From assembly GCA_048939995.1 (NCBI GenBank), contig JBHLOY010000002.1, positions 416,001 to 480,000 on the forward strand: DNA of 64,000 nucleotides. Direction: 5' to 3'. The stretch comes from Promethearchaeota archaeon. GTDB taxonomy: Archaea > Asgardarchaeota > Lokiarchaeia > Sigyniarchaeales > SOKP01. Both the position numbers and the translations under genes were made by a program. The stretch's first letter is position 1. The number at the start of each line of letters is the position of its first letter. The notes under the pieces are model-generated. The model searched no databases. It was given only the letters and a program-made list of their open reading frames with translations, and was not told the origin of the DNA. Shown here piece by piece: positions 31,648 to 61,660 of this stretch.

Positions 31648-32259
31648 TTATGATTCTGTCAATTTCTTTGCTTCTTCAATCCATTTCTGAATTCGCTCTT
31701 CTGAAACTCCTTTTATTAAAGTAGATAGTTCTTGAGGATCTTCTTTCAATAAATCTTCTACATTGTTTACTCCTAATTCGACAAATTTTTTCTCTGTTGA
31801 AAGCCCCAATCCTGATAACAATGTTAAGGGGCTACCCTTTACTTCAACTTTCTCTTTTTTTACTTTTTCTACCTTAGCTACTTTCTCTACCTTTTCCTTC
31901 TTAACGGGTTTTACTTTCTTTTTAGGAGTCACCTTTTTAGCAGCTACTTCCTTTTTAACTATCCTCTTTACAGGTTTTTTTGATACTGGTTTAAATGGCG
32001 TGCGCTTCTTCTCTTTAAAAACGTATGGTTTCCTCTTCTTTCCTTTTTTCTCTGAAATCTTTAACTTTTCTAATTTTTCAACATTTTCTTTATGCGTAGA
32101 TTGCCTAATATAATCAATTGGAATATTTAGCTTCTTTAATAATTGAACTGTTTTCCCAGCTTCTCTAATTTCAGCTAACGAAAAGCCCTTCCCTTTTCTT
32201 AAATTATGAGCTTTTGATGGTGAATATACTATTGCATTTGCAGTATCTTTAGTTTCCAT
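31648..32259 (-). CDS. rpl13e: Ribosomal protein L13e with a Lys-rich linker and C-terminal helix-hairpin-helix domain
   Basis: RKGKGFSLAEIREAG...IPID..R.S.H.ENV; C-terminal LSGLG......F.ELGV..VEDL...IKGVS. Confidence 0.85.
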   Translation of the reverse strand: METKDTANAIVYSPSKAHNLRKGKGFSLAEIREAGKTVQLLKKLNIPIDYIRQSTHKENVEKLEKLKISEKKGKKRKPYVFKEKKRTPFKPVSKKPVKRIVKKEVAAKKVTPKKKVKPVKKEKVEKVAKVEKVKKEKVEVKGSPLTLLSGLGLSTEKKFVELGVNNVEDLLKEDPQELSTLIKGVSEERIQKWIEEAKKLTES

Positions 32260-32377: not shown

Positions 32378-33028
32378 TTACATTTTAATAATGTCTAATT
32401 CTGCTAATTTTTTCAGAATTTCATTAATTTCTGTTCGTGTTTTGTTAAAATATCTTGAGATTTTAAGCGGAGAATTTTTTTCTTTTTCTCCTGTACATTT
32501 CAAGGCCACTTTAAAATCGAAATCATTAATCATACCCATAGACAATATTTTTTCTAAAACTTTTTTTGCAATTAATAAGGTAGGAAAAACCTCAGCAATT
32601 TTACCGCCAAATGTTAAATTTTCAATATCAGTGTTAATCGTCTGAAATCTGCTCCTTTCAGTTGTCGTTCGGAATATCTTTATATCTGATTGATGCTTTT
32701 TCCAAAATCTATTAGCAATCTTATGAATCACCTCAATCAATTTGTCTGTATTATCATCAGAATCAGAAATAGAACAAAATAATATTCTAGAAGTTGGATG
32801 ATAATAAATCACAATTGTAGAGTCTTCAGATTCAACGGTTCTTATTATTTCATCACTTCTTTTTCCTTTTGCCATCGCATCTTGAATATTATCAATAATT
32901 TGGTTTATTTCTTTAAAAAAACCTGGTATTACTTCATTTCCAATTTTACTTTTTTGAAACTCTTTAAAAGTGGTTTCTAATATTGAAATCCCGTTATCCC
33001 CATCAATTAGATAGATTTTATAGATCAA
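32378..33028 (-). CDS. Longin-domain protein with a C-terminal winged-HTH-like segment
   Basis: IYLIDGDNGISIL...IPGFFKEI; tail SPLKISRYFNKTRTEINEILKKLAELDII. Confidence 0.6.
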   Translation of the reverse strand: MIYKIYLIDGDNGISILETTFKEFQKSKIGNEVIPGFFKEINQIIDNIQDAMAKGKRSDEIIRTVESEDSTIVIYYHPTSRILFCSISDSDDNTDKLIEVIHKIANRFWKKHQSDIKIFRTTTERSRFQTINTDIENLTFGGKIAEVFPTLLIAKKVLEKILSMGMINDFDFKVALKCTGEKEKNSPLKISRYFNKTRTEINEILKKLAELDIIKM

Positions 33029-34476: not shown

Positions 34477-35889
34477 TTAGATATAAGTTTTGATTAAATC
34501 TTTTATATTTTTAGTGAATTTCGGTAGCTGCTTCTCGATTTTCTGAATATTCTCAAATTTTTCCATAAATAAAAGTAAATATAAATTATATTTATCTACT
34601 TCAATTTTTTTAAATATTATTTTCTTTTCTTCCTCAGTTATGCCTGAGGTAACAATAAAATCTTGTTTTAGTAATTTAAATTCTTTAAAAGTTTTGTAGA
34701 GCGTTTGGAAGTGAGGGGCTGATATTTCAAATACCTTTTCAGATATTTCTGAATGAGAATAATTGGATAAGATTATACCATTGTCATTTAATAATAATAC
34801 TGCATCAGATTCTGTTTTATTAGCCAAAAACTTAAGTTGATTTTCGAATAATTCCCGGTTTGGGCTGAGTTGTGAAAGTCCATAGGAATAAGCTGAGATT
34901 AATGAATAATGATCGAAGATAGAGGTATGAAATATTTTAAGAAAGAAATTTGCGGCTGTTCCTGCAATTTCTTGTTCAAGAAATTTTATATTCTTTTTAA
35001 TATCCTTTGATTTTTTTAAATCAGGATCAAACTTGTTTAAACAAACTACTATGGGTGGAAACTCATCTAACTCCCTTAGAGAATTTAAGATTTTTTTGAA
35101 TAATTCAATAGCTTCTTCGTTCCTTTTAACATCTTGGATATCAATGAAGTAAAATAAAAGATCAACATTATAAAGGTAGACTTTGCTTTGTTCAAGATAC
35201 TTTTCTCGATACTTTTGTTGACCCCCTAAATCCCATATTGATATAGTTGAGTTCTGTTCTTCAAATATTTTTTCCTCAGTTCTTGCAACTCCCTTAGTAG
35301 GCAATGCTTTAATGATCTCAGAATATTTTTTCTTAACACCTAGTAAAAAACTGCTTTTACCTGCTCGATCTAATCCTACAAAAAGAATTTTTAATACTTT
35401 TTTAGTTGTTATTGAATCTTTTATTTCACTGCTAAAATCAAATAATTCTTTCTTTAAATGTTCTAAAATTAATTTACTTTTCTCCACATTTTGTGAAACT
35501 TGTACCTTAGAAGCTGCTCTATCGATAATTATTCTTAAATATTTCATATTTTCATAAAAGAATACTTTATTTTGCTCATCAATTAGGACAGAAATAGTTG
35601 CAGCTGTAGCATTTCCACGAGCATTTGCATCAGGTATCAAAAAAAAATAAGTTAATCCATTCATTTTTAAATCAGGAAATGGTAATATACCAAAATAGTT
35701 GACCCCTTCTATATCAGTTCCATCTTGATACACAGCATCACCCATTAAAAGACTAATTGTTTTCATGGCAATTAGTAAACGAGCAGACTCTTCCATATCA
35801 TAAGGCCAATAAAATTTTGCAGTCGGTCCTTCCTCGTCAAAAAAACTCAAAACGACAGCTTTTATGATATTTGCACTAGGACTATTCAT
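34477..35889 (-). CDS. uDENN/longin + Rag/Arf-like GTPase + roadblock-like C-terminal domain
   Basis: FFDEEGP...WP and DANARG; GLDRAGKS, PTKG, WDLGGQ, NKFD, TSIFD; LSPNRELFENQLKFLA...DAVLLL. Confidence 0.8.
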   Translation of the reverse strand: MNSPSANIIKAVVLSFFDEEGPTAKFYWPYDMEESARLLIAMKTISLLMGDAVYQDGTDIEGVNYFGILPFPDLKMNGLTYFFLIPDANARGNATAATISVLIDEQNKVFFYENMKYLRIIIDRAASKVQVSQNVEKSKLILEHLKKELFDFSSEIKDSITTKKVLKILFVGLDRAGKSSFLLGVKKKYSEIIKALPTKGVARTEEKIFEEQNSTISIWDLGGQQKYREKYLEQSKVYLYNVDLLFYFIDIQDVKRNEEAIELFKKILNSLRELDEFPPIVVCLNKFDPDLKKSKDIKKNIKFLEQEIAGTAANFFLKIFHTSIFDHYSLISAYSYGLSQLSPNRELFENQLKFLANKTESDAVLLLNDNGIILSNYSHSEISEKVFEISAPHFQTLYKTFKEFKLLKQDFIVTSGITEEEKKIIFKKIEVDKYNLYLLLFMEKFENIQKIEKQLPKFTKNIKDLIKTYI

Positions 35890-35951: not shown

Positions 35952-37802
35952 CTATTCAGTAATTTTTATATAATACATTTGGGACGATTCACAGATTCTT
36001 TTAAGAAAATCGTATATTTGCTGAGCATTGCTTAATTCTTTATTATGCTTGCTAAGAGATATCTGTTCAATAGCATTATTTTGAATTATTGAATGAAATA
36101 TGCCATGACTTTTAATACGCTCCAGCAATGGCATATTAAGGTTTACGGCAAGATGGTACGATTCAGTATAATGAGGATATTTATCATCATTGCGAGTAAT
36201 TGCATCGTTACTAAAATGCTTTTTATCTAATCGAGTAAAACGGCTTAAAGCTTTATTTGATGAACTTCCAGTCAAACAAAAAGGGAAATTTAATTGAGTT
36301 GATTTTTCTTCGCAAAACTCCTTCATTTCAAGTATTATCTTTTGTGCCAATTTGATTGAATCTAATATTTCAGAAAAATCTAAATTTGTTAAGCTTTTTA
36401 GGGTTTCACTTAAACCCACAAATCCTATGCATAATTTCTGATTTCTTAAATCAAATAAATTATCCTTATTTAAATTACTACAAAGTGGAAGATGATTTGT
36501 TTTTAATCTTTTTTCAATCACTTCCACTTTTTTTATCAAGATTCTAACAACTATTTCCATTAAATCAATTAAACTTTCAAGAAATTTATCCTCATCTTTC
36601 TTTTGATAAGCTATTCGCGGCAGATTTAAAGAGATTTTTTGAAGTATTCCATAATTATTGCAAGCATTACTATGATATTCAAAATGCCTTTCTTTGACCC
36701 AATTGAGGCATGAGTTAATAAAGTAAAGCTTTTTAGTTCTTAGAGATTCATTAATAACTCGAAAATATGATTCCTCATACTTCCGTAATAGTTCCTCATC
36801 AAAGAATACAATATGATTAGGATATAAGAGAGATTTGCTGTTATAATCTCCTTTCGTGAAAATAGAAGTTAAAATTTCAAAGATTTTAAGGCATTCCTGT
36901 TTATAATCGCCATAAACTCCTGATCCTTCTCCATTTGGAGTTATGGCGGAAAGATTTAAAAGCTTTTGGGATATAGTTGGAGTGCAGGAAATTGAAGTCT
37001 TTAAAGAATTTTTAGCAGTAATCATCGCTAATTGATTAATTTTATAAATAAAATTTCTTAATATATTTTCAATTTCATTGTTTGATAAGCCTCTGACATA
37101 CGGAGCTAAAAATACTGTTATATGTTCAAGTTTCTGCTCATCGCTAAATTCACTTTGGATGAAACCTAACCACTGAGCGAGTTGATAGGTCGCATCCAAT
37201 AAATTTTTTGGCGGACCTAATTTAGAACCAAAATTCCAGTGTTTCACGGGGGGCAATCCAAACTTTAAAATCATTCGCGGATCCCATACTTCTGAGTACA
37301 TTCTTAAATCAAAATATTTTAGTTGATGAATGTGAATATCACCATATAAGTGTGCATGAGCCTCTTCATCTGATAAGATTCTTAACAGTGAATATTCTTC
37401 TGCCAACTGATTAGCTGCTAAATGATGAATTTTTTCTGGATTAATAACCTTTTCTCGGGTATGCTTAAAATTAGTTTCAAGAATTTCTTCATAATCCATC
37501 AATGGCATTCCAATTCGGGTATATAATTTACGTTCCTCTTCATAGTGCTGTTCAGATAGAATAGAACATACGATTTCTCTTATATGAGGCCCAGAAAGAA
37601 ATTTTATACTAGAAGATATAATCCTTCTCACTACTAATTCTGTTATTTTTCCAGCAACAGTTTGATTTAATCCAGTTTCCTTTATTATACTTAACTCAAT
37701 TTTAGTAGGATCAAAAGGTACAACATCTCCTTCTGTCCTAAAAACTTTTGGCATTAATTTCTTTAAATAAGATTTTTCTTTTTGACTCATTTCCAATTCC
37801 AA
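35952..37802 (-). CDS. ATP-cone + class III ribonucleotide reductase (NrdD)-like protein lacking the Zn/glycyl-radical domain
   Basis: ATP cone (VFRTEG...FD..KI), AHLYGDIHIH, SLNLPR, IGFVGL.E, YT.S.H; no CxxC..CxxC or RxxGY. Confidence 0.75.
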   Translation of the reverse strand: MELEMSQKEKSYLKKLMPKVFRTEGDVVPFDPTKIELSIIKETGLNQTVAGKITELVVRRIISSSIKFLSGPHIREIVCSILSEQHYEEERKLYTRIGMPLMDYEEILETNFKHTREKVINPEKIHHLAANQLAEEYSLLRILSDEEAHAHLYGDIHIHQLKYFDLRMYSEVWDPRMILKFGLPPVKHWNFGSKLGPPKNLLDATYQLAQWLGFIQSEFSDEQKLEHITVFLAPYVRGLSNNEIENILRNFIYKINQLAMITAKNSLKTSISCTPTISQKLLNLSAITPNGEGSGVYGDYKQECLKIFEILTSIFTKGDYNSKSLLYPNHIVFFDEELLRKYEESYFRVINESLRTKKLYFINSCLNWVKERHFEYHSNACNNYGILQKISLNLPRIAYQKKDEDKFLESLIDLMEIVVRILIKKVEVIEKRLKTNHLPLCSNLNKDNLFDLRNQKLCIGFVGLSETLKSLTNLDFSEILDSIKLAQKIILEMKEFCEEKSTQLNFPFCLTGSSSNKALSRFTRLDKKHFSNDAITRNDDKYPHYTESYHLAVNLNMPLLERIKSHGIFHSIIQNNAIEQISLSKHNKELSNAQQIYDFLKRICESSQMYYIKITE

Positions 37803-37918: not shown

Positions 37919-38734
37919 ATGTTAAATGAATCTATTTATTTATCTTTAAAACACTTCTTTACTGAAATTTATCATATCCTCCTTAAATCTACTAAGGATG
38001 CAACTGAAATCTGGTGTGAAACATACGAAATTGACTTCCTAGCTACTTTGGATAAAGAAAGCATTAATGATCTCATCAATAAGTTTGAATTTATCTCACG
38101 AAAAAAAGGGAGCTACACATACTTTTATTCAATAAATAAAATCTCATTTATCATAGAAGCACTACAAGTACTAGAATTTGACATTAAAGAGTTATCAAAC
38201 TTAATTAACTTTAGTGGTTTTGAACAGTTGATTCAAGAAATTCTTGTAAAAAATGGGCATTACACCATAAAGAATTTTAGATTTTCAGATAGATCATATT
38301 ACAGAAAAACAACAAAACAAACTAAATACGAGATTGATGTGATCGGATGGAAGGAGCAATTTTTGCTCCTTATTGACGCGAAGCAATGGAATAAAAGAGA
38401 TGCATTTAGTGCACTTAATAAAGCAGCAAATTTACAATACCAGAGAGCTTTAACTCTTCAAAAAAACTCTGAAATCCTTTCAGATCTAATCCAATCTCTT
38501 ATTGGACCTAAAAATTTTTTAAAAATCAAATTACCTATAATAATAATCCCAATAATAGTTACCCTCGAAGAGAATAGGGCACTCATAAATGAAAATATGG
38601 TCCCATTAGTCTCAATCTATAAAATAAATTCTTTTCTGCAGGAATTAAAATTAAACTTATCCTATTTTAAAACTCTTAAAATAAATAAAATATCTATACA
38701 AAAACAAATATTTAATTCATTTTGCGAATCCTAA
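37919..38734 (+). CDS. PD-(D/E)xK Mrr-like restriction endonuclease-fold protein
   Basis: FEQLIQEIL..NG, YEIDVIG, LIDAKQW. Confidence 0.7.
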   Translation: MLNESIYLSLKHFFTEIYHILLKSTKDATEIWCETYEIDFLATLDKESINDLINKFEFISRKKGSYTYFYSINKISFIIEALQVLEFDIKELSNLINFSGFEQLIQEILVKNGHYTIKNFRFSDRSYYRKTTKQTKYEIDVIGWKEQFLLLIDAKQWNKRDAFSALNKAANLQYQRALTLQKNSEILSDLIQSLIGPKNFLKIKLPIIIIPIIVTLEENRALINENMVPLVSIYKINSFLQELKLNLSYFKTLKINKISIQKQIFNSFCES

Positions 38735-39646
38735 ATAATCTTTAATTTGTTTTTTGACTATATTTGCGGCAAAATGAATAATCCCGCTCTTAACTTTTGG
38801 ATTAGAAAGTATTACTAAAATCATATCATTAAATTGAGGGATCTTATTATCTATGGGAGCCAAATCTAAAACTCCATGGGTGCCCCTTACTGATATATTT
38901 AAAAGTTTACCTGCGCTTAAGCTCTCAATTATATCTAAACCTATCAAAGAAAGACTTTGACCTATAGTCGCAAATAGAGAGTCAGATATTCTGGAAGAAA
39001 TAGCTGAAGCTAGAATCGTTCCATCTTTTTTTATTATTGCTGATGCTTCGATATGGAGATCTAATTTCAATAGTTCTTTCAAAATTTCATTCATACTTGA
39101 GGGCGATATGGCTTCTTTTTGCTTTTTTCCTTCTCTTTTCTTCTCTGTTGGTAATTTTTCAACAGTTACCTTTTTAGAAAGAAATTTGAGAACTTTTGTC
39201 ATATCTTCTTCTAATTGTTTCTGCTTAATTAGAGTAGATTCCAAATCTTGGTTGTTCTCAATTAAAACTTTTTTTTGTTTCTTCGGAGTAGGGGTTCCAA
39301 ATATTGCTTTTGAGGCTATTATAGATCCTTTAAAAGGTCTAGGAGTGATTTCTTTTAGAATTTCCTTATTTTCTCCGATTTCTGCTTTAACCGCATCAAC
39401 TTGAGAATCATCCATCTCAGGATCAGTATATTCTTTTGGAATCTCTTGAAGTTCTAGTAGTGAGGGCTTTATGAGATCTTCTCCTTTAATCGATGCTCGT
39501 TTTGATTTAGTTGGCTTACTAGATTTTTTTTCGACACCAATCTTCATTCGTGGAGCTTTACTTGAAATTGGTAAGAGAGCTCCGCATGTCCTGCAGATAC
39601 GTTCATTTGAAGGATTTGTCGTTCCACAATTCGAACAAATTATCAT
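38717..39646 (-). CDS. Zinc ribbon + disordered linker + roadblock/LAMTOR-like domain
   Basis: CSNCG...ICRTCGA; ILKEL....IEASAIIKKDGTILAS, ISVRGTHG, G.IHF. Confidence 0.75.
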   Translation of the reverse strand: MIICSNCGTTNPSNERICRTCGALLPISSKAPRMKIGVEKKSSKPTKSKRASIKGEDLIKPSLLELQEIPKEYTDPEMDDSQVDAVKAEIGENKEILKEITPRPFKGSIIASKAIFGTPTPKKQKKVLIENNQDLESTLIKQKQLEEDMTKVLKFLSKKVTVEKLPTEKKREGKKQKEAISPSSMNEILKELLKLDLHIEASAIIKKDGTILASAISSRISDSLFATIGQSLSLIGLDIIESLSAGKLLNISVRGTHGVLDLAPIDNKIPQFNDMILVILSNPKVKSGIIHFAANIVKKQIKDYLGFAK

Positions 39647-39730: not shown

Positions 39731-40693
39731 TTATTTATAAAGAAGTTCTTTTAGGAGATTGGAAAAAGTATCAAAATCTTCCCGAGAGATATTAGGATCT
39801 TGATTTAACATTATTAAATAATATGGGGGGCCTCCTTCCTTTAGTGATAATTGTTTAAAAATAAAATTTCTCCCAAATCTCTGAATTACCATTTTACTCT
39901 CATCATATTCCTTCCCAGGTAACACTTGTGTGAACTGTAAATTATCATTCAAAGCTAAAAAATAGGGTGTGGAAGCTGAAAGTAAGTTATGAGCTTCTTG
40001 AGTTTTATAATATGCTCCCAATACTAAAGAATTATCATCAAGGATTACAACTCCTTCTGAATTTACCTTTTCTGCAAATTGATTCATAGTTTTTTCAATT
40101 AAATCTGCTTTTGGGTAAAGATTCAGTAAAATTTCGGACATTGCCTTGATTATTGAAGGTAAATCGTATATGGACGTTTTGTAATAAAAAACTTTCTTAT
40201 AATCAACTACATTTTTTATTTTTTCTTTTATTTCTAGTTCTAAAGACTTTAGTTCATTTGGAGCATTACGTTTTAATGCTGGATCATACTTGTGGAGGAA
40301 TATGTAAATGGGTGGACTTATCCCTAATCTGCCGAATTGTTCTATAACATCTTTAAAATAACTTATAGATTCTGGAAGTCTACTCTTTGCTTGAATATCT
40401 ATTACATATATCGCGACCTCAGTGCCCTCAAAATACTTACCAGGATTCTTTAAGTAAGCAATTCGATAACTTACTTGCCCTCCAAGATCCCATTCAGCGA
40501 TATCCCTGCCCAAGAATTCGAAGATACGTCTCTGTGCTCCCCTTGTTGGCTTAAGCAATGCAATCTTTGAGAACTCTCGCTGAAGTCCTAAAATTATAGT
40601 TGTTTTGCCTGCAAAATCAAGACCAGTGAAAAGTATCTTAGAAGGTTCAACTGGCTTTTCATCCTTTTTCTTAGTTAAATATTGGATTGACAA
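39731..40693 (-). CDS. Rag-like small GTPase with a roadblock-like C-terminal domain
   Basis: GLDFAGKT, PTRG, WDLGGQ, HKYD, TSIYD..SI.KAMS. Confidence 0.8.
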   Translation of the reverse strand: MSIQYLTKKKDEKPVEPSKILFTGLDFAGKTTIILGLQREFSKIALLKPTRGAQRRIFEFLGRDIAEWDLGGQVSYRIAYLKNPGKYFEGTEVAIYVIDIQAKSRLPESISYFKDVIEQFGRLGISPPIYIFLHKYDPALKRNAPNELKSLELEIKEKIKNVVDYKKVFYYKTSIYDLPSIIKAMSEILLNLYPKADLIEKTMNQFAEKVNSEGVVILDDNSLVLGAYYKTQEAHNLLSASTPYFLALNDNLQFTQVLPGKEYDESKMVIQRFGRNFIFKQLSLKEGGPPYYLIMLNQDPNISREDFDTFSNLLKELLYK

Positions 40694-44657: not shown

Positions 44658-46151
44658 ATGGAAAAATTACTTAACACTTCAATAATAAAGGGATTTGTTT
44701 TTAGTGCCTATGAAAAATTAGGACCTCAGCCTATTTTCATGTTTCCAGAACCAATCGACCAGAATGACATAAAAGATGAAAAGAGCTCAATAGAAGAGAC
44801 TTTCAATTTAACTCTACGAGATTACACACAAATCTCTATAAAAAATTTAAGTCTTTTGATAGGAGATGGCACAATCCTAGATAATGTTGATGTTGAGAAA
44901 TACCAGTATTTTGGAATAATTCCCTTTCCGGATTTTAATTTAACCTCTTTAACTTTTTTTCATTTTGTAAACGTGAGATTTTCTGAGAAACCGCTAGCGA
45001 CAGCATTCTCATTACTTGTAGATGAAAACAAAAGAAGTTTTTTGTATAATAATATTAATAGATTGAAAAATATAGTTTTGGATTTCTTCCAATTATTTGA
45101 TAAGGAATTGATTGATGGATATAAGCCATACAAAGAGGTAGAACATCTATTCAAAAGCCTTTTGGAAAATGTGGTTAAAATTGAGGAAACCCCTACAACT
45201 CCGTTTACTACTCAGAGAAAAATGAAAATTATATTTGCGGGTTTAGATGATTCAGGTAAAACTTCATTCTTGTTATCAATAGACCGGAAATTTTCTAAAT
45301 TGATGGGATTAAAACCAACTATTGGAGCTCAAGTTAGCTCTATTAACGCATTTGGAGCGAATATATTCTTATGGGATCTTGGGGGTCAAGTAAATTTGAG
45401 AAAAAGTTACCTTGACAGAGCACAAATTTATTTATATGAAGCAGATTTAATGTTTTATTTCATTGATATTAAGAATAAAAGTAGATTTGATGAAAGTATT
45501 GATTACCTCCAAGAAGTAAATAAAATCATAAATAACTTTAATCAAGTAACTCCTATCATATATATTTTATCAAAAGGTGATCCTGACATTATTGAATCGA
45601 AAGAGATTCAAGAAAATCTGCAAATAATTAAAGAAAAATTGAATAATATTGAACAGTTACAAGAGATTCATGTAACTACAATATTCCAAATCTATTCTAT
45701 TTTAAGGGCTTTTTCTTCTGGATTATCAAAATTAAGTCCTAATAAAGATTTGATTGATCATAATCTGAAAACTTTTTCGATGGAAACAGCTGCTTATTTA
45801 ACCTTGATTCTAAGTAGTGATGGATTAGTTTTGGCTGAAGATTATTTGCCTGAGGCAGTCTCTTTGACAAAGATCCCTCATTCTGCAGAATTATTAAACA
45901 TATTTGAAGTTACAGCACCTCAATTTGCAATATTGTTCAAAATATTCTCCAAGTATAAAGCACTTAGAGAAAATGAAGCTATATTTAAAGTAGCAGATTC
46001 CACAATACTTTTTAAAAGAATAAATGTCTATAGGTATGAGATGTATATTCTCTTTCTCTTAGATGATGAATCTAAAAAAGAGAAAATAAATCAATTATTA
46101 CCAGCGTTTCTTAAACGTACACAGGATTTATTAATTAGGTATATTTCTTAG
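44658..46151 (+). CDS. uDENN/longin + Rag/Arf-like GTPase + roadblock-like domain (paralogue of 34477)
   Basis: YEKLGPQP..FP, YFGIIPFPD; GLDDSGKT, PTIG, WDLGGQ, SKGD, TTIF; LSPN, FEVTAP.F. Confidence 0.8.
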   Translation: MEKLLNTSIIKGFVFSAYEKLGPQPIFMFPEPIDQNDIKDEKSSIEETFNLTLRDYTQISIKNLSLLIGDGTILDNVDVEKYQYFGIIPFPDFNLTSLTFFHFVNVRFSEKPLATAFSLLVDENKRSFLYNNINRLKNIVLDFFQLFDKELIDGYKPYKEVEHLFKSLLENVVKIEETPTTPFTTQRKMKIIFAGLDDSGKTSFLLSIDRKFSKLMGLKPTIGAQVSSINAFGANIFLWDLGGQVNLRKSYLDRAQIYLYEADLMFYFIDIKNKSRFDESIDYLQEVNKIINNFNQVTPIIYILSKGDPDIIESKEIQENLQIIKEKLNNIEQLQEIHVTTIFQIYSILRAFSSGLSKLSPNKDLIDHNLKTFSMETAAYLTLILSSDGLVLAEDYLPEAVSLTKIPHSAELLNIFEVTAPQFAILFKIFSKYKALRENEAIFKVADSTILFKRINVYRYEMYILFLLDDESKKEKINQLLPAFLKRTQDLLIRYIS

Positions 46152-53966: not shown

Positions 53967-55016
53967 ATGACAGAACAAATTATTTCAATAATATTATATG
54001 CCCAACTTGATGACGAATTGGGACCAAACCCTTTAGTTTGGTTGCCGGAAGCGTATGCACCAAATGAGATAATGCATATCGTAATTAAGGTAATTACTGT
54101 ACTTTCTGGTGAACAAGGTTTAATTCCCGAATCACTAGTTATTCTTCCCTTTCCATCTTTAAGGTTAAAAGGATTAATCAAATACCTTAAATGGAATGAT
54201 GAAAGTAGGCGAGGTGGGATAGGGCAATCGGCAATAGCATTACTATTTAAAGAAATGGATGATGTTATTTTTTATAAATATATGGATCAACTTAATTCTC
54301 CTTTCAATGATATCGCTCTCAAATTAGTTGATTTTGAAACAAATAAAGCCTCTAAAGAGAATTATACAGAGTTGTTAAAAACTTTTAATACAGATTTGAC
54401 AAATTTATTAGAAGAGCTTAAAAGTAAAGAACTTTCACAAGTTAAAGAAAAAGAATTCCCAGAACAAAAATTGAAAGAAGCAGGACTTATTGATTATAAG
54501 TTTAAAATTGCGATTGTTGGAGATCCTGGAGTTGGTAAAACATCTCTTATTCTAAGGTATACAAATAATGCATTCAGGAGACAATATCTCCCAACATTAG
54601 GTGTGGTAGTCTCAGATAAAGTTTTTAATGTAGAGGATTCAACAATCCAATTAGTTTTATGGGATATTGCTGGTCAGGTGAAATTTGAAACAATGCGACA
54701 ACAATTTTATCTTGGATCTGATGCTATCTTGTTAGTTTTTGACTTAACTAATAGAAAATCTTTTGAGAATATATCTGACTGGTATTTGGATATTAAGAAA
54801 CAATTAAAAACATCTAGAGATTTGATTGGTTTTATTGTTGGAAATAAAAATGATTTAGTAAATGATATAAAAATTGATTCAAGTAAAGCTAAGGAATTAG
54901 CTGCTTTTCGCAATTTAGATTATATTGAAACTAGTGCTCTGAGTGGTGAGAATGTTGATCTTGCATTTAATAAACTTGCCGAAAGGCTTTATGAAAAATT
55001 TAAAATCTTAAAATAA
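53967..55016 (+). CDS. uDENN/longin + Rab-like GTPase
   Basis: LDDELGPNP..W.P, DESRRG; GDPGVGKT, PTLG, WDIAGQ, GNKND, ETSAL. Confidence 0.85.
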   Translation: MTEQIISIILYAQLDDELGPNPLVWLPEAYAPNEIMHIVIKVITVLSGEQGLIPESLVILPFPSLRLKGLIKYLKWNDESRRGGIGQSAIALLFKEMDDVIFYKYMDQLNSPFNDIALKLVDFETNKASKENYTELLKTFNTDLTNLLEELKSKELSQVKEKEFPEQKLKEAGLIDYKFKIAIVGDPGVGKTSLILRYTNNAFRRQYLPTLGVVVSDKVFNVEDSTIQLVLWDIAGQVKFETMRQQFYLGSDAILLVFDLTNRKSFENISDWYLDIKKQLKTSRDLIGFIVGNKNDLVNDIKIDSSKAKELAAFRNLDYIETSALSGENVDLAFNKLAERLYEKFKILK

Positions 55017-56548: not shown

Positions 56549-57625
56549 ATGTCAAATAAAGAGTTTATAAATGCAATTATTTATACAGATATACACGATG
56601 AACTGGGACCGAACCCTGTTCATTGGTATCCTGCTGATCTCTCTGAAAATATACGCATGTTGGTTAGCATTAAGGCTGTTACATTACTTTCTGGAAGCTA
56701 TGGGTATGTACCTGACTCTTTAATCATCTTCCCATTCCCTTCTATTAAACTAAAAGGGATTGTAAAATATATTGAGAGAGCAAATGATAGGAGAAGAGGA
56801 AAGTCAGCTCGATCAGCAATCACCTTCTTATTTAAAGAAGTAGATGATTTACTTTTCTATAAGTATATAAGTTATCTTGAGACTTTGTTTACAAATGCAT
56901 CGAGAAAAATTATTGATCTAGAGAAATCCAATGCAGATGTTTTTCAAATTGATCGAGAGATTTTTCAAGAAATCGATCATCTAAGAGGAAATATACTTGA
57001 ATTACTTGAAGAATTACGAAAAAAGGAATTAAGATTAGAAGAGTTTCCCGACGCAGCCAAAGAGAAGGAAATTAAAGCGGATTATAAATTTAAATTAGTT
57101 GTGGTAGGAGACCCAGGTGTAGGTAAAACATCAACCATCTTAAGATTTACTGATAATGCGTTCAGTAGAGTGTATCTTGCAACGGCAGGTACCAATATAT
57201 CTGATAAAAGTTTTCAAGTTGATAGGAATTTCGTAGAATTGATTATATGGGATATAGCAGGTCAAGCTAAATTCGGTACAATGAGGAAACACTTTTATCA
57301 AGGCGCTAATGGTGTTATCTTAATTTATGATCTAACTAATCCTAAAAGTTTCGAAAGTATCTCCGCATGGTATAAGGATATAAGAAATCATGTAGGTAAA
57401 AAAGCATCTTTAGTAGGATATATATTTGGAAATAAGCTTGATCTAATAGAAGAGAGAAAAGTAAAAACTAAAACCGCTCAAAAACTAGCAAACGCTTTAA
57501 ATCTTAATTATATTGAAATTTCTGCTCTAACGGGGCAAAATGTTGAGAATTCATTTTACAACATGGCTAAAAGATTAATACAACTAAAGAAAAATCATTC
57601 TAACGAGATACTCTTTCCTTCTTGA
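56549..57625 (+). CDS. uDENN/longin + Rab-like GTPase (paralogue of 53967)
   Basis: HDELGPNP..W.P, NDRRRG; GDPGVGKT, WDIAGQ, GNKLD, EISAL. Confidence 0.85.
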   Translation: MSNKEFINAIIYTDIHDELGPNPVHWYPADLSENIRMLVSIKAVTLLSGSYGYVPDSLIIFPFPSIKLKGIVKYIERANDRRRGKSARSAITFLFKEVDDLLFYKYISYLETLFTNASRKIIDLEKSNADVFQIDREIFQEIDHLRGNILELLEELRKKELRLEEFPDAAKEKEIKADYKFKLVVVGDPGVGKTSTILRFTDNAFSRVYLATAGTNISDKSFQVDRNFVELIIWDIAGQAKFGTMRKHFYQGANGVILIYDLTNPKSFESISAWYKDIRNHVGKKASLVGYIFGNKLDLIEERKVKTKTAQKLANALNLNYIEISALTGQNVENSFYNMAKRLIQLKKNHSNEILFPS

Positions 57626-60433: not shown

Positions 60434-61660
60434 ATGGTTGAATTTTCTTTCGATGATTGGCTAATAGGTATTTCTACGTTTGGTATTCTCTTATTTGGAT
60501 ATACTATTGGCTCTTTTTTTTTTTACAAGTCTAGGAAATTAAAAGTAAATCTTCTAACGTTTTATAGTTTAGCTACTATATTTGTTACATTTGGATGGTT
60601 GCCAATTATCATAGATTTCTTGATTGTACTCATATCAGAAAGTCATATAAACCTCCTATTATATATTTCAATAATGTGGATTCAACTACCTTTAACCGTT
60701 ATTCTCCAGCAATATATTACAGCAGAGCTTTTAATTCCCAAAAAGAAATGGTATATAATTATCGGATTAGTATTATTAGGTTTTTGTTTTTATATGGTGC
60801 TCTTTCTTGATCCTTTTGGATCTGTAATCATTATCGGTCCACCTATTAAAGCATTTTACCATAAAGCGGGATTGAATCCTTCTACCTTAACAGGTTTAAT
60901 TGGAACAATCTTTATCTTTTTCGGTTTAATCTTTGCAGGATTAGGCTTTTTAATTAAATCAATCAAATCTAAAGGTGATATAAGAAGAAAATTCTTGTAT
61001 TTAGCGATAGCAATGATTTTAGGCTACACATTTGGTCTTTTAGATAGTTTCACTGAAAGTTTTACTCTCGTTCTAGTAAGAATCGGATTTATTAGCAGCA
61101 ATTGGTTTGCTTATTTTGGATTAAAAACGAGAAAACCAAAAGAAATAAAGAAAAAAATGCCTACTGAAAAAGAAATCGAATTAGTTTCATATATGCTAGG
61201 AAAATCAGAAGATATAGACTTATCCAAAGAAATTACCTCAATTTGCAAAAATTTTACGGATGAAGTGTTAGTGTTTGTTAGTTATGCAACTAAGGATGCC
61301 AAGACCTTTAAAATTAAGCAAATTGCAGAAAAATTAACTACATACCAAGAAATAAAAGATGTGTTGTACTGGCAAGAAGATCTAGACGACAATATTTTCG
61401 AGTATATGAATGATAATCTGGGTAAATGCAATATTATGGTTTTATTTTGTTCTAAAGCTGCATTAAGTTCAGTACCAGTTAAAAAAGAATGGACTGCTGC
61501 GGATGCTTTGGGAATACCGATTATACCTGTATTTATTAATCCAGATCATATCCCACCCCTTTTAAAATCTAGATTAGGATTTGAATATGATTTTTATGAT
61601 TTTCAAAAAAATGTTGATATGCTACGCTATTTAATATTAAAAAAGTGTAGCAATAAATGA
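60434..61660 (+). CDS. 7-TM membrane protein with a C-terminal TIR domain
   Basis: Seven hydrophobic helices; VFVSYATKD, VLFCS...L.S..VKKEW..A, IIPV, IPPLL. Confidence 0.82.
   Translation: MVEFSFDDWLIGISTFGILLFGYTIGSFFFYKSRKLKVNLLTFYSLATIFVTFGWLPIIIDFLIVLISESHINLLLYISIMWIQLPLTVILQQYITAELLIPKKKWYIIIGLVLLGFCFYMVLFLDPFGSVIIIGPPIKAFYHKAGLNPSTLTGLIGTIFIFFGLIFAGLGFLIKSIKSKGDIRRKFLYLAIAMILGYTFGLLDSFTESFTLVLVRIGFISSNWFAYFGLKTRKPKEIKKKMPTEKEIELVSYMLGKSEDIDLSKEITSICKNFTDEVLVFVSYATKDAKTFKIKQIAEKLTTYQEIKDVLYWQEDLDDNIFEYMNDNLGKCNIMVLFCSKAALSSVPVKKEWTAADALGIPIIPVFINPDHIPPLLKSRLGFEYDFYDFQKNVDMLRYLILKKCSNK

Follow-up and report, generated by a model that had tools for sequence, protein, structure and literature searches.

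Within the 64,000-nucleotide stretch of Promethearchaeota archaeon DNA that was analysed as a whole (the window; contig JBHLOY010000002.1), the following features were assigned to gene A and to two further genes, B and C:

34477-35889, minus strand: gene A (P0001), uninterrupted open reading frame for a 470-aa longin-GTPase-roadblock (LGR) protein
35422-35868, minus strand: longin (u-DENN) domain of A, FLCN/SMCR8/NPRL2-type, residues ~8-156 (AF2 model, fold matches and a sub-threshold match to Pfam Folliculin)
35824-35829, minus strand: GP motif of A, G21-P22, in the β1-β2 turn before strand 2 (120/120 homologues)
35614-35631, minus strand: DANARG loop of A in the β4-β5 hairpin, with the candidate arginine finger R91 at 35617-35619 (model and alignments)
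34873-35397, minus strand: Rag/Arf-like G domain of A, residues ~165-339, G1-G5 intact including Thr198 and Gln224 (Pfam, alignments, fold matches)
34483-34857, minus strand: C-terminal roadblock domain of A, residues ~345-469 (secondary structure of the model, Foldseek matches to Rag chains)
44658-46151, plus strand: gene B, sister LGR paralogue of 497 aa, GP kept, Arg finger absent, G4 atypical (SKGD) (orthologue alignments)
39731-40693, minus strand: gene C, stand-alone Rag-like GTPase plus roadblock, 320 aa, orthologue of LokiRagO (phmmer E 3e-88 to 8YL2)

Analysis of gene A confirmed the three-part protein of the original prediction with all of its quoted motifs, including DANARG, and a frameshift or annotation artefact was ruled out by hundreds of full-length homologues named Promethearchaeota or Lokiarchaeota. 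The G domain, claimed to be intact, does carry all five motifs (G1 GLDRAGKS, G2 PT198, G3 WDLGGQ224, G4 NKFD and G5 TSIF), and residues 167-382 match Pfam Gtr1_RagA (PF04670) with an E-value of 8.6e-26 and 91 bits against a cut-off of 22, while the Arf profile also matches residues 156-324 with 72 bits. The full-length model (pLDDT 75) shows the domain order longin, G domain and roadblock, its top PDB matches being LokiRagO, LokiRagM and eukaryotic Rags. The C-terminus adopts the α-β-β-α-β-β-β-α topology of a roadblock domain in the model, and the G domain and roadblock together provide ~300 columns alignable to LokiRagO and eukaryotic Rags by Foldseek, in line with the RagA/RagC-like C-terminus that had been proposed. 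The linker between the last longin helix (135-155) and the first strand of the G domain (166) comprises only ~10 residues. Inspection of the sequences by eye gave no evident lipidation motif or membrane helix in A and B. Five residues past the switch I Thr, Arg203 (35281-35283, minus strand) is present in 120/120 sequences of A; the same position is also Arg in C and Val/Ile in B. A is a member of the LGR family; its anatomy is real, conserved and well supported, and its function is inferred.

Directly upstream of A lies a class III ribonucleotide-reductase-like open reading frame (35952-37802, minus strand) with an ATP cone and an NRDD match reaching profile position 505 of 562; the corresponding site holds only a 145-aa N-terminal piece in one related genome (G147), and other relatives are devoid of the frame. 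Two more genes recur in the vicinity of A and C in several relatives: one (38717-39646, minus strand) encodes a zinc ribbon plus a roadblock-like part, the other (32378-33028, minus strand) a winged-helix-like part at its C-terminus. The latter has a profile probability of 0.8% for the GAP-longin family and is therefore not counted as a member. Further genes encode an N-terminus resembling ribosomal protein L13e joined to a helix-hairpin-helix domain (31648-32259, minus strand) and a multi-pass membrane protein ending in a TIR_2 domain (60434-61660, plus strand; E 1.9e-12).

Modelling of the N-terminal domain of A alone with AF2 (pLDDT 90.7, pTM 0.87) gave the secondary structure β-β-α-β-β-β-α-α of the longin/u-DENN fold. 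Structural comparison (VIA Z) ranked 8YQG first (18.5), followed by Lst4 (13.1), C9orf72 (12.7), FLCN (12.0), NPRL2 (11.1), FNIP2 (10.9), DENND1A (10.7) and SMCR8 (10.4), while TRAPP, SNARE and adaptin longins scored lower (Z 9.6 or less). With Z-values of 10-13 to eukaryotic GAP longins, the assignment to an FLCN/SMCR8/NPRL2-type longin is borne out; because of the ranking, the modelled domain is placed in the u-DENN/GAP-longin class as such and is no closer to FLCN than to FLCN's relatives. A was rejected as a folliculin/SMCR8 orthologue because the DENN module is absent and the longin runs straight into the G domain and roadblock. At the level of sequence, the Pfam Folliculin profile matches residues 79-138, a segment spanning the finger, with an E-value of 0.0036-0.0099, which is below its cut-off, and matches 26/84 family members with a best E-value of 1e-5. 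The family profile aligns the GP motif of A to sefseqvGPqP of SMCR8, albeit weakly (E 0.24), and the finger segment stayed unaligned to eukaryotic chains in three PDB sequence searches using family profiles or single members. In the model of A, R91 is located between strands 76-86 and 94-104. The arginine finger of eukaryotic GAP longins is located in this same β4-β5 hairpin, the respective residues being FLCN R164, SMCR8 R147 and NPRL2 R78.

Both A90-R91-G92 and G21-P22 are present in 120/120 close homologues, with the flanking loop residues 88-89 varying freely; finger and GP are also invariant in 20 diverse A orthologues and in a 46-row set reaching down to 33% identity. Among distant family representatives R91 is retained in 96/139, or in 95/112 without the B clade, in line with the expected conservation of the Arg in the hairpin. 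The DANARG string was dropped as stand-alone evidence: as the D..ARG pattern is not rare in the source genome, occurring in 6/2,812 open reading frames of 150 aa or more, the hexapeptide alone proves little. The longin fold, the position in the hairpin and the conservation together lift Arg91 above chance.

The finger is less new than had been implied, since the same finger is carried by Rab-fused longins in the window. A profile search returned five longins of the A family in the genome, four of them within the window. Besides A and B, these four include two longin-Rab fusions (53967-55016 and 56549-57625, both plus strand) with GP and an RRG finger loop, and in a third longin-Rab copy (G000:C35:6175-7212) both GP and the Arg are gone; across representatives of the Rab-fused longins, the Arg is kept in 41/49. 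The finger was also found on longins without any GTPase. Open frames of 570 to 3,100 aa in another genome (G241; L033, L037, L039 and L042) carry a longin with GP and ARGG. The MK-D1 roadblock-longin solved as 8YQG (L032, G307:C1:1540442-1540813) has no Arg, and ARG is present in its roadblock-longin relatives L023, P0327 and P0370.

These distributions bear on the question of whether Arg91 is catalytic at all. The longin could instead be a binding platform, a GEF-like module or a small-ligand sensor, with Arg91 being structural or binding a phosphate or a partner, a reading that we regard as unlikely. It would fit the facts that most longins are GEF or adaptor platforms, that comparable longins occur as fusions with domains other than GTPases, that 8YQG of MK-D1 lost an Arg kept by its relatives and that DENND1 GEF domains score close to GAP longins (Z 10.7). 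However, the combination of GP and a hairpin Arg is, according to a recent report (PMC12290439), the mark of GAP longins and does not occur in those of DENND, TRAPP or adaptin proteins, and Arg-Gly is invariant in a loop with variable neighbours.

Gene B lies 9 kb from A, with C located between the two; A and B are divergently oriented and form no operon. In B orthologues GP is present in 120/120 and ARG in 0/120. In a tree comprising no eukaryotic sequences, A and B form two deep sister clades across the order (100/100 support), with the Arg in 20/20 A rows and the RG motif in 0/23 B rows. Both genes occur in 95/106 family genomes; five genomes have only A, four only B and two neither, the absences falling mostly in fragmented assemblies and one B-only genome having an assembly gap right at the start of B. 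The distance between A and B has a median of about 10 kb (22 same-contig cases) and extends to 80 kb in one genome (G210), and in relatives C is located close to A, B or both. In MK-D1, A is orthologous to WP_147663355.1 (42% identity, syntenic) and B to WP_147663364.1 (34% identity, syntenic), and A, C and B of the MK-D1-matching genome G307 agree with WP_147663355, WP_147663357 and WP_147663364 of a published supplement (PMC10933270). B is a candidate non-catalytic partner of A, and C a candidate target or partner; as each Lokiarchaeia genome contains 12-25 matches to PF04670, other Rag-like GTPases of these organisms could also be target or partner.

The divergent orientation of A and B and their distance of 80 kb in G210 speak against a pairing, and their co-occurrence is weak evidence for binding because the genomes are kin with conserved synteny. 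Complex prediction for A:B yielded an ipSAE of 0.45 compared to 0.01 for the best control, with a contact agreement of at least 84% between runs and a partner pLDDT of at least 77. In the benchmark, the ipSAE mark was reached by 58/80 solved and 2/110 mismatched pairs; as those reaching it at 0.60 or under comprised few of the solved pairs (7/80) and both mismatched ones, the A:B score lends weak support, and it may reflect the likeness of the model to solved Rag dimers.

A lineage with decayed G domains allowed action on the own chain to be weighed against action on another. In four A-clade proteins (P0249, P0253, P0274 and that of G165), switch I and G3 have decayed but the finger persists. 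In G165 (G165:C11 and G165:C27; L003/L014, L028), A retains ARG and has lost the switch I Thr and G3 (WDYKPK), B has a destroyed P-loop (GLKHSEIN), and C is intact, co-oriented and located two genes upstream of A. As the tree unites the decayed members in a single group on long branches (94/83), the decay counts as one event. On the strength of these sequences, retention of the finger after decay of the own G domain favours trans over cis, and the finger does not have to act on the chain that carries it. Strong conservation of the G domain in typical A members, on the other hand, would fit a role of that domain as the target.

A self-inactivating switch, in which Arg91 turns off the G domain of its own single chain, is the reading to which we give the least credence. 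It would accord with the stability of the longin-GTPase fusion across the order, with the usually canonical G domain of Arg-bearing A (PT, DxxGQ) compared to the more frequently drifting one of Arg-less B (WDIPGKK in MK-D1), and with the lack of an intrinsic switch-I Arg in MK-D1 longin-GTPases, which were proposed to need GAPs (PMC10933270). Against it stands the survival of the finger after loss of its own switch. In the longin fold, the last helix lies opposite the face of the GTPase-binding α1 helix, which together with the short linker would make the reach of Arg91 to its own active site doubtful. In addition, the eukaryotic pocket needs two longins (PMC8213707). Of the two modes of action offered by the original prediction, in cis or across a dimer, the across-chain part is therefore favoured and the cis part disfavoured. 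Similarly, its notion of one polypeptide holding both GTPase and GAP stands as far as the longin/GTPase fusion is concerned, but as a self-contained unit it is probably incomplete, because eukaryotic longin GAPs are asymmetric dimers and a conserved Arg-less sister exists.

Alternatively, Arg91 could be a genuine GAP finger in a protein that works without B, either as a homodimer acting on the other chain or with a different longin partner, possibly from the roadblock-longin family of 8YQG. 8YQG is a homodimeric longin of the same family, LokiRagO is a homotetramer, AF2 homodimers of MK-D1 longin-GTPases have been published (Tran et al., PMC10933270), and the Rab-fused relatives mostly keep their Arg with no obligate Arg-less partner being evident. 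Nevertheless, A and B have been kept together throughout the order, even where both G domains decayed together, and as this suggests a linked function of A and B, we consider independence from B improbable.

Taken together, A most likely works like a longin GAP, and our best explanation, albeit one put forward tentatively, is that A and B form a longin GAP which acts in trans on a Rag-like G domain. In this view A would be a GTP switch of the Rag-like kind, and its N-terminal longin would supply the catalytic side of a GAP with an arginine finger. The analysis shows that this domain is a longin of the GAP type carrying GP and a conserved Arg in the hairpin, and that the neighbouring sister B, with GP but lacking the Arg, has been retained throughout the order. 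Rags dimerise via their roadblock domains. A and B may likewise pair through roadblock-roadblock and longin-longin contacts, such that two chains would build what eukaryotes build from four, namely an SMCR8/FLCN-like and a C9orf72/FNIP-like longin and two Rag G domains. The longin pair would then cup a Rag-like G domain, with Arg91 and the G3 Gln completing the active site. In the weakest step of this proposal, the target would reside on another chain, which might be the G domain of B, another A or C. The more specific claim that A and B together are the archaeal, two-chain equivalent of the longin-GAP/Rag assembly of eukaryotes, in which Arg91 serves as a functional GAP finger towards a Rag-like G domain, appears possible though somewhat doubtful. 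If true, the control of Rag-like switches by the arginine finger of an asymmetric longin pair would predate eukaryotes, and the asymmetry shared by A/B and eukaryotes would have arisen by descent or by parallel duplication.

In A, a Rag-type switch is combined with an off-switch-like domain which in eukaryotes resides on proteins distinct from the switch (folliculin, GATOR1, SMCR8). FLCN, GATOR1 and C9orf72-SMCR8 are disease genes that control mTORC1 signalling and trafficking. The presence of a candidate GAP fused to a Rag-like GTPase, its Arg-less twin and an adjoining orthologue of the crystallised LokiRagO, with A carrying the Arg and its sister lacking it, offers a concrete test of the origin of nutrient-signalling machinery; as A, B and C have orthologues in cultured MK-D1, the question of the GAP target can be reduced to a three-protein assay.

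Regarding novelty, the architecture and Asgard finger longins are each known. The LGR architecture was published for Promethearchaeum syntrophicum MK-D1 (Tran et al. 2024, PMC10933270) in a study that compared the G domains only, modelled longin-GTPases as homodimers, suggested that LGR proteins may need GAPs and called the matching of Asgard GTPases to GAPs hard. Its LGR proteins are orthologous to A and B and have the same longin-G-roadblock order, although neither a finger nor an Arg-plus/Arg-minus pair is described. Asgard longins with GP and an arginine finger, 15 sequences with the same motifs and fold as A, were likewise published with a proposed GAP activity (Traffic 2025, PMC12290439); the available part of that paper leaves their partners open, naming ArfR or Rag proteins, and does not mention GTPase fusions. 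NPRL2-like Asgard longins appear in bioRxiv 2020.10.19.343400 with no mention of the arginine. In the literature searched, with subscription papers lying outside, no paper unites the LGR architecture with an arginine finger or tests its activity, and no working prokaryotic arginine-finger longin GAP has been demonstrated. The putative built-in GAP finger appears new as a union within one protein, as far as this literature extends, its two components having been published separately.

The closest solved structure is 8YQG, a dimeric Lokiarchaeal roadblock-longin domain (profile E 7e-19, Z 18.5) which shares GP with A but has neither the Arg nor a GTPase fusion. Rag/Gtr proteins (RagA/B-RagC/D, Gtr1-Gtr2) and LokiRagO/LokiRagM (8YL2, 8ZLA, 9M28) combine a G domain with a roadblock and a TSI-type G5 as A does, whereas A has an additional N-terminal longin, an Arf-like G1 and NKFD as G4. 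In eukaryotic longin GAPs, asymmetric longin dimers hold the GTPase in a two-longin bowl to which one longin gives the Arg (PMC8213707; PMC9473554), and C9orf72:SMCR8 (Arf GAP), FLCN:FNIP2 (RagC/D GAP) and NPRL2:NPRL3 in GATOR1 (RagA/B GAP) share longin, GP and hairpin Arg with A. In contrast to these, A and B are devoid of DENN domains, WDR41 and DEPDC5, have their longins fused to GTPases and operate in a setting with no lysosome or TORC1. In C9orf72, GP is present and the finger absent, according to PMC12290439, and the catalytic/non-catalytic asymmetry predicted for A and B accordingly comes closest to that of SMCR8, bearing GP and Arg, with C9orf72, bearing GP only.
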